Positions 2,356-29,963 of a DNA stretch of 64,000 nucleotides are shown piece by piece. A model generated the notes under the pieces. That model worked only from the letters and a program-made list of their open reading frames with translations, had not been told where the DNA came from and searched no databases. Numbering within the stretch: position 1 is the stretch's first letter; every line of letters begins with the position of its first letter. The stretch is taken from NCBI GenBank assembly GCA_963677595.1, contig OY782041.1, positions 224,001 through 288,000 of the forward strand, in the 5' to 3' direction. The translations under genes were made by a program, and so were the position numbers. Source of the DNA: Spirochaetia bacterium (GTDB lineage: Bacteria > Spirochaetota > Spirochaetia > CAKZLE01).

Positions 2356-2796
2356 TCACAGCTCCTTTCCGGTGACACGCTCGGCAGCCAGCTTCCAGAC
2401 CCGTACAGCCTCGACAGCTTCAGGAGTGAACTCCCAGGCCTCATCTGAGTAGTGGGCCATGATGCGGGACAACGCTTCCACCTTCCCCGTATAGCCTGTC
2501 ACCTCTGAGACCTGCCCGTACCCGATGACACTCCTTCCGGACATACCCCAGCCGCAGGGAGCTTTATCATGCGGCTGCAGCCTTACATCCTGCTCCATCT
2601 CGAAGCAGACGGTCCCCCCGCCCTCGAGGTAGGCGATCTTCCTGCCCTCACGTGCCGTGTGGAAATAGATATGCGACCCGTCGTACCCGTAGTTCAGCGG
2701 GATGATATACGGGAGGGATCCTGCAGAAACAGCGAGCCGCATGACCTCTGCCCCCCTGATCACCTCATCGATCCGTGCACGATCCCTGATCTCTTT
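2356..2796 (-). pseudogene. Pyridoxamine 5'-phosphate oxidase / NimA-like flavin-binding protein, 3' part, interrupted by IS110
   Basis: 'PYIIPLNYGYDGSHIYFHTAREGRKI...VCFE...SVIGYG' family motifs; no start codon on this side of the IS; joins in frame to 4374-4392. Confidence 0.88.
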
Positions 2797-2809
2797 ATTT
2801 GTCTGTAGA

Positions 2810-2815
2810 TGTCAA
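2810..2815 (-). promoter_or_regulatory. -35 box (TTGACA) of the IS110 circle-junction promoter
   Basis: Joining right end to left end gives TTGACA-17 nt-TAGTAT (-10 box at 4368-4373). Confidence 0.8.
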
Positions 2816-2930
2816 GGGGTATAAACAAGAAAGTTTTGGCAATTCAAATAGACACAATTCTCCGAGACCTTAAAAATAAGGACTTGCGTGGGGAGGTGGT
2901 TAGTGATAGGCTAAAACCGTTAGATTGGCT

Positions 2931-4100
2931 TTAGCTGGTTATTGAGCTCTTATCGGAATTAATCTGCCAGGATCGGGTTCCGACGAGAGCTTCAAGTTTA
3001 TAGTATTGCAGTTTCTTCAACAGATACTGTTCCCCGTCAGGCATCCGGTAGATGTCACCGTTCTTCAGCAGAGCGAATCCGATAGAGAGCATCTTATTAG
3101 CAATGGCAACTGATGCTTTCTGACCAAGCTTCCGTCGGCTCTCAAGACGCTGCCAGTACCGAGTAAGAGAACAATCTCTCCTAAAGCTCTTGATCCCCCA
3201 GGCTCCCTGCATGATGTGCCTCCTGATCGGCATACACCCGTGACGAGAGACCCCGAGCTGCTTATCGACCGTCCCAGATTGATCCTTCTTCGGGATGAGA
3301 CCGATATAGTTCCTCAGTTGGTTAGCAGAAGAGAATCGGTCTCCATTACCGAGGAAGGCAATGAGCGTTACAGCCGTGATGTCTCCGATGCCAGGGATCG
3401 AGAGCCAGGAAAGAGCTTCTCGTGGATGAGCGAGAATGATCTCCTTGAGCTTCTCATGAATACGTTCCATCTGCGACTCCAATGATTCAAGCTCTTCGAG
3501 CAGGAGCCCTGCACTGAATAGAGCTATCTCCTCGGCGAGTAGGGTCTCCACCCAGGCCCGTCGCTTGCGAGGATCCTTCAGATCCGATTTCTTCAGGTCA
3601 GGGAACCCCATTCCCGTGAATACCGCATGAAGCTTGTTGATGACCTTCGTACGATACTGAGCATAGGCGATGTGAAGTTTGACTACTGAGCGCTCAGCAG
3701 ATTCCTGTTCAGTCGGGATGGGAACCAGTACCCAGTTCTCAGGATGGGCATCCCGTGCATACTTAGCCAATTTTGCAGCATCTTGCCGATCTGTCTTGCA
3801 GATCGACTCGAAGATGATATGCAGTTTCATGGGGTTGAGTACATACACGTCTGCTTCGGTGTGCTTCAGCAGATACCGTGCGAGGTTGAAGGAAGATGTC
3901 CCTCCCTCCATAAAGATCGCATCTCCTGCTTTGAACCGTTCAGCGAGTCGCTGACGTCCTTGAGCATTCATCTTCTCGTTGAAGAAGTGATTCTTCATGA
4001 ACCCTTCTTCTGCTAGCAGCATACACCCAACCAGAGTCTTCTTGGAAAGATCCAAGCCGATGATCCTGGTTGCCGTCAATCGTAAAGGTCTGTCTATCAT
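2931..4100 (-). CDS. IS110-family transposase / DEDD bridge recombinase
   Basis: RuvC-like DEDD residues in 'IIGLDLSK', 'FMEGG', 'KTDRQDA'; C-terminal 'SIPGIGDITA...YIGLIPKKDQSGT' with the conserved Ser; GAGGAGG RBS. Confidence 0.96.
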   Translation of the reverse strand: MIDRPLRLTATRIIGLDLSKKTLVGCMLLAEEGFMKNHFFNEKMNAQGRQRLAERFKAGDAIFMEGGTSSFNLARYLLKHTEADVYVLNPMKLHIIFESICKTDRQDAAKLAKYARDAHPENWVLVPIPTEQESAERSVVKLHIAYAQYRTKVINKLHAVFTGMGFPDLKKSDLKDPRKRRAWVETLLAEEIALFSAGLLLEELESLESQMERIHEKLKEIILAHPREALSWLSIPGIGDITAVTLIAFLGNGDRFSSANQLRNYIGLIPKKDQSGTVDKQLGVSRHGCMPIRRHIMQGAWGIKSFRRDCSLTRYWQRLESRRKLGQKASVAIANKMLSIGFALLKNGDIYRMPDGEQYLLKKLQYYKLEALVGTRSWQINSDKSSITS

Positions 4101-4149
4101 GGCAGCCTCCTCAAAATAAAATTAACGGATAGTTGGGAAGCTTTATGAC

Positions 4150-4362
4150 AGGAAGTGCGTAGATGTCCTTCATTTTTATTATTGAGATCATTCCCGGGGA
4201 GAATTCCCCGGGAAGTCTCCAAGTAGTCTTCGATGACCGGTCAGTGTATCTTTCTCATTGAGGTATGTCTGGCAGTCCAGCATCCATCACAATAGATCAT
4301 TACACGATCACCGGTTCCCATTCTCCGTCAAGAATAGGATAGCATCTATGACTTCTCAACTA
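4150..4362 (-). ncRNA. Predicted IS110 bridge/seek RNA in the long upstream non-coding end
   Basis: Lies downstream of the junction promoter. The 5' and 3' ends pair (GAAGT/ACTTC, TAGATG/CATCTA, TCCT/AGGA). Two internal loops carry segments matching the target site and the donor junction. RNA ends are approximate. Confidence 0.8.
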
Positions 4363-4373
4363 CAGTCATACTA

Positions 4374-4392
4374 CTTTCTCTGCTCTTCTCAT
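4374..4392 (-). pseudogene. 5' fragment (MRRAEK) of the IS110-interrupted flavin-binding protein gene
   Basis: ATG AGA AGA GCA GAG AAA G| continues as |AG ATC AGG GAT at 2792; TATAAT lies 7 nt upstream of the ATG. Confidence 0.85.
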
Positions 4393-4666
4393 ATGCATGA
4401 TTATACCTGCGGCGTAGTTCTTTTCAACTGCAGGCGTACATGATCTCCATAAACCCTCCGATATTCATCAACATAATTAGTTGCATTGCTATTTATTCTG
4501 GGCTAGAATAAATTATATAGAATAACAAAAAAAGGCAGATCAACTATGGTGTATGTTTCTTTGTGTCAGACAATACTGCTTCGTATCCTTTTTTCGATTC
4601 GTCAACAACCCTTCAGCGACCGGTGTACCACGACACGCATACAGCCACCCCTAGAGGGGGTGCTGC

Positions 4667-5491
4667 ATGGGTAAGCCTGTCCACAAATACATCAGCCTCC
4701 TCTTCGGGATCGCCGGCATCCTCAACTTCCTCTCCACCTTCTTCGGGACGGTGACCGACTGCCCCTTCTGCAGCGGCTATGAGCTCAGGTGGTGGAGCTA
4801 TCCCCTCCTCGGAGTCGGGATCTACTTCCTGTGGACCTACTTCTGCACACGTGAACGGGTAGTCCTGAGCCTGCAGGATAAGACCGTGACAGTCAACATG
4901 TCCGTGATCATCCAGTATTCACAGTTCGGGTTCATCTACCTGATCTCGATCTTCGTGGCGTTCCACCCGCTCCACAACAACTTCACGATGGAACTGCTCT
5001 TCCTCGCCCTGCTGCTCGGGCTGCGGTACCAGCTGATCAAGATCCGGGGGAGCATCTTCATGGGGGTCACCACCTCCATTGCCTTTGAGTTTGCTGCCTT
5101 CCAGAACGGCACACCCCTCGACGGGCTGTATGTGCTGATCTTCGCAGGAGCCATCATCTTCGTCCTGCTGCTCATCCACATGGACTTCCTCAAGATCGAC
5201 TCAAGCATGCATGAGCGGATCCTCCATGTGGAGACGCGCCTGAACCAGTACGAAAAGGAAACCCTCGACCCGGGGGACTTCCCGTTCACCCCCAGGGAAC
5301 TGGACGTCCTGAAGGCCCTCTGCCTGACGCACGGCTCCAACAGTGATATAGCTAGCGGTCTCGGGATCAAGGAACAGACGGTCAAGGGGCACCTGAAGAA
5401 CATCTTCGACAAGGCAGGGGTCGATGACCGACACCAGCTCGTCGACCTCTTCAGGCATGCCTTCATCATGGATGACGACCTTGACCATTAA
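4667..5491 (+). CDS. Membrane-anchored LuxR-type HTH regulator (paralog 1)
   Basis: Multiple N-terminal TM segments; C-terminal 'FTPRELDVL...SNSDIASGLGIKEQTVKGHLKNIFDKAGV'. Confidence 0.85.
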   Translation: MGKPVHKYISLLFGIAGILNFLSTFFGTVTDCPFCSGYELRWWSYPLLGVGIYFLWTYFCTRERVVLSLQDKTVTVNMSVIIQYSQFGFIYLISIFVAFHPLHNNFTMELLFLALLLGLRYQLIKIRGSIFMGVTTSIAFEFAAFQNGTPLDGLYVLIFAGAIIFVLLLIHMDFLKIDSSMHERILHVETRLNQYEKETLDPGDFPFTPRELDVLKALCLTHGSNSDIASGLGIKEQTVKGHLKNIFDKAGVDDRHQLVDLFRHAFIMDDDLDH

Positions 5492-5548: not shown

Positions 5549-6376
5549 ATGGAAGATGATCGATTCAAGACAGTCAGCCTGATCTACGGTATCATCGGTA
5601 TGCTCACCTGCATCATGCAGGTGGTCACGGTCATGACAGAGACGGACCTTGGCGATGAACACACACTGGCCTGGTGGTGGTACATGATCCTCATTATCGG
5701 GATCTTCTTCCTCTGGATGGCCTTCAAGAAACGGGGCACCTACTCCATCACCCTGTTGGGGAAGACCATCAAGATCAACCTCTTCCGCATCACGAAGGTT
5801 CTGCATTTCGTCGTGATGTATATCTTCTCCGTAGTGGAGATCAACGCTGACCATACGAGCCAGTACGGCATGATGATGCTGTTCATCTCCCTCATGATGG
5901 GGATCAAGTACCGGCTGATCCGAAAGCGGGGGATCATCATCTGCCTGATCATCTTCGCAGCCTCGCTCGAGACGGGTGCAGTCCAGGCAGGGTATCCCTT
6001 CCGGGCAGTCTACACCTTCATCTTCGCAGGGTTCTACTTCGGTATCCTGAGCGTCCTCTATACCGATGAACTGCGGAAATACTTCACCCTGGCAAAGAAC
6101 TTCCATGAGAAACTCCTATCGGTAGAGGAGAAGCTGAAGAAGTATGAGGGTCAGACCTTCGACCCGGAGGCCTTCCAGTTCACTCCCAGAGAGAGGGAGA
6201 TCCTGAGTATCCTCTGCACCACGCACGGCACCAACCAGGAGATCTCAGACCAGCTTGGGATCAAGGTCCAGACCGTGAAGACCCATATAAAGAACATCTT
6301 CGACAAGGCAGGGGTCGATGACCGGCATCAGTTGATCGATCTCTTCAAGCATTCCTACATCCAGGATGAGACGTAA
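5549..6376 (+). CDS. Membrane-anchored LuxR-type HTH regulator (paralog 2)
   Basis: Same architecture; 'FTPREREIL...TNQEISDQLGIKVQTVKTHIKNIFDKAGV'; AGGAGG RBS. Confidence 0.85.
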   Translation: MEDDRFKTVSLIYGIIGMLTCIMQVVTVMTETDLGDEHTLAWWWYMILIIGIFFLWMAFKKRGTYSITLLGKTIKINLFRITKVLHFVVMYIFSVVEINADHTSQYGMMMLFISLMMGIKYRLIRKRGIIICLIIFAASLETGAVQAGYPFRAVYTFIFAGFYFGILSVLYTDELRKYFTLAKNFHEKLLSVEEKLKKYEGQTFDPEAFQFTPREREILSILCTTHGTNQEISDQLGIKVQTVKTHIKNIFDKAGVDDRHQLIDLFKHSYIQDET

Positions 6377-29705: not shown

Positions 29706-29790
29706 GCGGGTTCCTCCTGTGTTCGTATAGCTACTACAAACAGGATTTAGTTAGATTTGATTTAAAAAATGCTGCGATCGATGAAAAAAA

Positions 29791-29963
29791 TATGACTGTA
29801 GTTGAGAAGTCACAGATGCTATCCTATTCTTGACGGAGAATGGGAACCGGTGATCGGATAATACTCCTTTGTGACGGATGCTGAACTTTCAGACATACCT
29901 CAATCAAAAAGATACACTGCCCGATCATTGTAGACTACTTGGAGACTTCCCGGGGAATTCTCC
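29791..29963 (+). repeat. Orphan copy of the IS110 left end / bridge RNA, no recombinase attached
   Basis: Gapless 156/173-nt match to the reverse complement of 4198-4370. Confidence 0.92.

Follow-up and report, generated by a model that had tools for sequence, protein, structure and literature searches.

The 64,000-nt stretch of Spirochaetia bacterium DNA analysed here (the window) carries a gene that is split by an insertion sequence. This locus raises the questions of which kind of element interrupted the gene, how the landing site was chosen, and whether the gene could be restored by excision. We are highly confident that the insertion is an intact, recently spread IS110-family element of the ISLin1 lineage, likely an RNA-guided recombinase, with a predicted two-loop bridge RNA upstream of the transposase gene and guides arranged in the order known from the IS1111 group. 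The features on which this reading is based are listed in Table 1.

Table 1. Features of the element, its predicted bridge RNA and the interrupted gene (window coordinates; guides are given on the element strand).
Feature	Position	Strand	Remarks
Host pyridoxamine-5'-phosphate-oxidase-like (PF12900) gene, 3' part	2356..2795	-	PF12900, E 1e-23
Right core AA (element strand)	2794..2795	-	AAA common to all five copies is 2794-2796
IS110-family element with one copy of the 2-nt core	2796..4376	-	1581 nt; based on five same-ended copies and the empty-site joint
Right sub-terminal inverted repeat	2800..2816		Contains outward-facing -35 box TTGACA (2815-2810)
DEDD recombinase/transposase	2931..4100	-	389 aa; D17, E65, D104, D107, S275
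Predicted bridge RNA	4170..4345	-	5' hairpin, target-binding loop, donor-binding loop
3' donor guide AATAATAAA	4175..4183	-	Right-end terminus plus core
5' donor guide GACTACTT	4221..4228	-	Reverse complement of core plus left-end start
3' target guide TGAGAAA, then GA	4249..4257	-	Left target plus core; GA is the likely handshake dinucleotide
5' target guide TGATCTATT	4291..4299	-	Reverse complement of core plus right target
Left sub-terminal inverted repeat	4352..4368		Lies 6 nt inward of the core; -10 box TAGTAT, 4373-4368
Left core AA	4375..4376	-	4377 is a guide-specified target base
Host gene 5' stub	4378..4392	-	Now MRRAEKVV-stop, running into the element
Host promoter-like site TTGAAA-16-TATAAT	4400..4427	-	11/12; points into the element's left end
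Left-end-only remnant	29783..29963	+	89% identical; hairpin and whole target loop kept, guides differ

The transposase comprises an N-terminal DEDD RuvC domain and, at the C-terminus, a domain carrying a conserved serine, which is the architecture of the IS110 family. It matches PF01548 and PF02371 of Pfam as well as NF033542 of NCBIfam (201 bits against a cut-off of 140), and D17, E65, D104, D107 and S275 are invariant in 20 relatives. With the domain matches and catalytic residues present and the breakpoints precise, the original prediction of an intact IS110-family element holds. The left end (~275 nt) carries the RNA region, and the right end is ~135 nt long. The sub-terminal inverted repeats pair at 13 of 17 positions and lie 6 and 3 nt away from the AAA; at locus L001 both repeat arms have changed together. 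The proposed combination of an upstream non-coding end with imperfect sub-terminal repeats is thus borne out. Joining of the two ends gives TTGACA-17 nt-TAGTAT, which agrees with the consensus at 10 of 12 positions and is exactly the junction sequence that had been proposed, and TTGACA was present in the raw right ends of three of three relatives.

The CTTT noted beforehand on both sides of the element is indeed found at 2793-2796 and 4374-4377. Nevertheless, its fourth repeated base is a matter of chance, since the right flanks of the five genomic copies continue after AAA with G, A, G, T and T. A 4-bp CTTT core was therefore rejected: the five copies share only AAA (TTT on the forward strand) on both sides. 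In two relatives (L074 and L049) the left core is GAA or TAA and the guides carry the matching base, so that the invariant core is AA. The junction sequence is unaltered by this correction. The core is short at both boundaries and there is no true target duplication, as judged from the five copies and from an empty allele that keeps one core.

Besides the window copy and four other full copies (96-100% identical), the genome contains one left-end remnant and one 46%-identical paralogue. All five full copies have identical ends, and none was found to end differently. Over 1586 nt, the window copy and a second copy do not differ (100% identity). Contigs from two of three sequencing runs (X1 and X3, from two studies) contain a joint from 2792 to 4374 that skips 1581 nt, the exact length of the element plus one core; the empty allele was thus found at the predicted breakpoints. 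In X1, which may be the source sample, this joint has a depth of 28.7 and a shorter side of 26 nt, and in X3, from a separate study, a depth of 2.8 and a side of 36 nt. X2 contigs showed no such joint at the window site and, at the site of the twin copy, only an unclear one. The identical second copy and the polymorphic site in X1 support the earlier claim that the insertion is recent.

The twin copy (C1:1662861; L009:1225-2808) lies directly before a terminator-like hairpin, and its 5' guide fits its target one base out of register. Copies 3 and 4, at C1:2593636 (L013) and C1:2379286 (L011), each split an ORF: one insertion lies at codon 3-4 of a short 74-aa frame, perhaps HipA-N-like, and the other at codon 21 of a 111-aa ORF on the opposite strand, presumably phage AAA-ATPase-like. 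In X1 and X2, element ends are also joined to flanks that belong to none of the five genomic sites, which implies that these populations hold additional insertion sites. The paralogue (C1:2615576-2616691; L017) carries a left end and an RNA of its own, and no right end could be recognised. The remnant ends within the donor loop, and its predicted target equals none of the five occupied sites; it could supply a target-loop-only RNA in trans.

The original prediction left the bridge RNA unidentified, and it is this RNA that explains the site. The leader at the left end folds with z = -4.68, better than all 200 shuffled sequences, and in the consensus fold across 15 close relatives 16 of 47 pairs show compensatory changes. 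In these relatives a hairpin is followed by a stem that encloses a large internal loop and then by another stem; the most variable RNA columns are both sides of the first loop. A search of Rfam gave one chance match below the gathering score. At the sequence level the non-coding end contains loops matching the target and the donor, as in the IS110 family, the second loop matching the circle junction with the same polarity as in the target loop. In both loops the guide for the top strand precedes that for the bottom strand, which is the IS1111-type order, though the RNA lies upstream. The GA that follows the 3' target guide likely corresponds to the handshake dinucleotide, as judged from PMC13626964.

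If the loops specify target and donor, guides and flanks should vary together among relatives. We ran permutation tests (20000 permutations each). Their significance is overstated, as A-rich or AG cores are common to related loci, and inspection of the sequences preceded the writing of the parsing patterns. For the close relatives, 23 loci were examined; L040, L041 and L047, whose 8-nt 5' guide went unparsed, and loci lacking one flank were omitted. The 5' guide against the right target scored 63 versus 50.0 ± 4.3 in a fixed register (77 of 20000; 12 distinct pairs, 8 guides), and 83 versus 64.6 (1 of 20000) when shifts from -1 to +2 were allowed, in the null as well. The 3' guide against the left target scored 95 versus 71.9 ± 9.0 (55 of 20000; 15 pairs, 6 guides). 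Distant relatives gave 174 versus 144.6 and 200 versus 160.3 (0 of 20000 each) with 27 of 35 loci parsed and eight omitted. A first, stricter parse (11 of the 35 loci) gave only 1046 of 20000 for the 3' guide. The donor loop, examined in 24 of 24 loci, scored 117 versus 100.0 (0 of 20000) and 153 versus 143.1 (1 of 20000); the donor guides are imperfect, the 5' one often matching at 4-5 of 6 positions. One mis-assigned left end (L056) was kept in the counts. Controls in the IS621 guide order were null for the close (8175 and 15454 of 20000) and the distant relatives (15122 and 17132), and stood at 1833 and 18601 for the donor loop; that order was rejected as null in four tests (close, stricter-parse, distant and donor). 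Of the 12 close pairs, 5 need a register shift for the 5' guide to fit the right target; shifts of -1 in L003 and L038, +2 in L039 and +1 in L044 suggest slippage along an A-run core.

Removal of the element and one repeat leaves an open frame of 151 aa starting with MRRAEKEIRD. The homologue in a genome of the same genus is likewise 151 aa long and starts with MRRDDKEITD, which agrees with the N-terminus restored in the original prediction. The host gene scored far below the NCBIfam cut-offs for Nim nitroimidazole reductases (41 against 260 and 27.6 against 270 bits). Codons 4-8 match 12 of the 14 positions of the ideal target, TGAGA-AA-TAGATCA. Genome sites matching 11, 12 and 13 of the 14 positions number 290, 36 and 2, respectively; as 36 other places match at 12, the host gene was not specially chosen. 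It was likely hit only because these codons fit the guides, and the outcome is an insertional knockout, likely near one-way. We also looked for an outward hybrid promoter that might rescue the 3' part of the gene, and rejected it, there being no -10-like box 16-18 nt past the right-end TTGACA. The plus strand encodes, in tandem (4667-5491 and 5549-6376), two membrane proteins of ~275 aa whose C-termini are very similar, the former carrying a LuxR/GerE helix-turn-helix.

The best named match of the transposase among 72,556 plasmids was ISLin1 of Leptospira interrogans (28% identity, E 1e-35), and the two fall in one clade supported at 100/98, and at 99 in a second analysis. The placement in an IS110/IS1111 tree, which the original prediction had called for, is thus firm at the level of the ISLin1 clade. 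The tree references were 16 plasmid proteins, with IS621, ISEc21, IS110 and IS1111 themselves absent, the IS621 branch being represented by L109 (E 3e-32 to 8wt6) and a midpoint root used for drawing only. In this tree the clade lies outside the core IS1111 clade at 100/100 and is separated from six IS110-side references at 96/95; approximately unbiased (AU) tests rejected none of four placements (p 0.074-0.44), the branches being long. Placement as sister to IS1111 had p 0.32.

Relatives with a name were found in Sphaerochaeta-like spirochaetes and in a Cloacimonadota MAG, and close homologues are sparse among kin (3 of 150 other genomes at E<=1e-40, 36-44% identity). One relative, in genome G097, is 36% identical and present in 12 copies with core AG and the same anatomy. 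Its 12 insertions (L007, L010, L012, L014, L016 and L018-L024) lie within a different small mobile element, in the terminal inverted repeat, and the guides of this relative match that repeat. Repeats of the 13/17 type with 6/3-nt extensions recur through the clade; in 27 parsed relatives they pair at 8-11 of 11 positions, 8 being the parse threshold. We found no publication on the guides of ISLin1 or its lineage; the tree figure of PMC11187229 and Supplementary Table 5 of PMC11208160 lay outside that search, and either may already class ISLin1 and locate its RNA.

Three other explanations deserve consideration. The original prediction proposed that excision could switch the host gene back on, and the insertion might accordingly be a reversible switch, with the gene restored in a fraction of the population by frequent precise excision (phase variation like that of IS492). 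Clean excision would indeed yield exactly the observed empty allele, and filled and empty alleles coexist in X1. Nevertheless, the filled and empty depths are similar at the window site (23.1 and 28.7) and the twin site (30.6 and 41.5), and X1 also has two SNP haplotypes with depths of 26.6 and 27.3; taken together, a mixture of two strains fits X1, and the empty allele looks like that of a sister strain. At the twin site, moreover, excision would leave A at the core, whereas the empty allele in X1 reads C; either a base was overwritten on insertion or the strains are different at this position. The host promoter-like site reads into the element, albeit it is a consensus match only (3 such sites found against 3.1 expected in shuffles), and IS621 excision is aided by read-through, with post-excision junctions detected; according to the same study (PMC13626964), insertion of IS621 in vitro is stronger than its excision by ~2,000-fold. 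Circles of ISEc11 (PMC11187229) and CazIS110-1 (bioRxiv 10.1101/2025.10.25.684509) form without re-joining of the target; excision on record is either infrequent or copy-out. The circle junction, proposed to be detectable by read mapping, was not seen in the contigs of X1, X2 and X3; as contigs drop rare forms, this is no proof of its absence. Considering also that the site is one among dozens matching equally well, we regard the switch as unlikely, and re-activation of the host gene by excision is unsupported.

If the element were an ordinary member of the IS110 group, working like IS621 or ISEc21 with the bottom-strand guide first and its repeats incidental, then an upstream RNA with two simple internal loops, a 389-aa protein and an SG motif would all be as expected; AU tests reject neither a grouping with the IS110 references (p 0.44) nor one with an IS621-like protein (p 0.074), and the source data of PMC11187229 place ISLin1 under the IS110 family. 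This is, nevertheless, very unlikely: the guide tests in IS621 order were all null, the order seen here already contradicts it, and both the recurrence of the extended repeat across the clade and the split from the IS110-side references speak against it. It is least probable of all that the protein alone sets the target through a preference for A-rich sites and that the guide matches are coincidental. Targets and guides are A/T-rich, and the matches are imperfect and at times shifted; yet variable positions alone still covary in the close relatives (103, 0 and 52 of 20000). In the same genome, furthermore, a sister copy (C1:145124-146702; L015; 96% identical) whose transposase is 97% identical occupies a different site that matches its changed guides: both target guides have changed, and they fit their own site at 7 of 7 and at 6 of 9 positions plus two G-U wobbles.

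The preferred reading thus remains RNA-guided insertion by an ISLin1-lineage element. By analogy with IS621, ISEc11 and ISEc21, the ends would join into a circle and thereby build TTGACA-17-TAGTAT, from which the RNA and the transposase would be transcribed. Movement, the RNA and the activity of the junction promoter at this element are inferred from these relatives. The target loop would read ~14 nt around the AA core and the donor loop the circle junction, and transcription reading through from the host promoter could help the window copy to form circles on rare occasions.

RNA-guided recombination by IS110 and IS1111 elements has been in print since 2024, and it is therefore ordinary to find a housekeeping-type gene split and the junction resolved; the element is a well-resolved variant of a known RNA-guided family. 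Its value is modest and comparative, as it departs from a defining feature of each published group. It is attractive to speculate, although we hold this only tentatively, that the ISLin1 lineage, common in spirochaetes, represents a third architecture of bridge recombinases, in which guide polarity is uncoupled from where the RNA lies and IS1111-type ends and guide order are combined with an upstream, IS621-like two-loop RNA. It would then be an evolutionary intermediate, with polarity set by the protein and the ends rather than by RNA position, and its A-run core would tolerate slips of -1 to +2 and core mismatches. If this is the case, a target base can be overwritten on insertion, and the event would not be cleanly reversible. 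With dozens of guide-target pairs and, in the same genome, a reprogrammed sister copy, the lineage forms a clean natural series in which the determinants of guide polarity, and the extent of core slippage that a bridge recombinase accepts, become testable. It also corrects the assumption that an upstream RNA implies an IS621-type guide design, which is relevant to mining for editing tools.

In the IS1111 group, the top-strand guide comes first, near-perfect sub-terminal repeats of ~11-13 bp or more have 7/3 or 6/3 extensions and the RNA is downstream, whereas ISEc21 has the reverse guide order and an upstream RNA; exceptions in RNA position, such as ISMtsp17, and natural reprogramming have been noted (PMC11187229). 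For IS621, the loop geometry has been described, RNA position tracks phylogeny closely and target insertions are tolerated (PMC11208160). The present element resembles the IS1111 seekRNA elements ISEc11, ISKpn4 and ISPa11 (PMC11187229) in guide order and in the 6/3 extensions of its repeats, and differs from them in its imperfect repeat (13/17), in an RNA that is upstream instead of in a downstream non-coding region, and in a transposase of 389 aa, compared with 330-350 aa, that lies outside the core IS1111 clade. With IS621 and ISCro4 (PMC11208160, PMC13626964) it shares the RuvC-DEDD and serine domains (E 5e-14 and 1.5e-14 to PDB 8wt6 and 9t56), the upstream RNA, separate target and donor loops, a 2-nt core read by all guides, and tolerance of mismatches and target insertions; the protein is distant, the repeats are long where those of the IS621/ISEc21 group are absent or 2-3 bp, and guide polarity relative to the transposase gene is opposite to the bottom-strand-first order of that group. 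ISLin1 itself (L037, NZ_CP092665.1) has the upstream non-coding end, the sub-terminal repeat, a 2-nt core, the junction TTGACA-17-TAGTAT, the top-strand guide first and a similar 5' hairpin loop, and is distinguished by core AG instead of AA, 357 instead of 389 aa, and another target. It occurs in tandem (L037:200-600 and 1640-2000), its target being a 36-bp tandem repeat array, and its guides are readable in the same order. The element of the window is therefore best filed under the ISLin1 lineage rather than under either published group.
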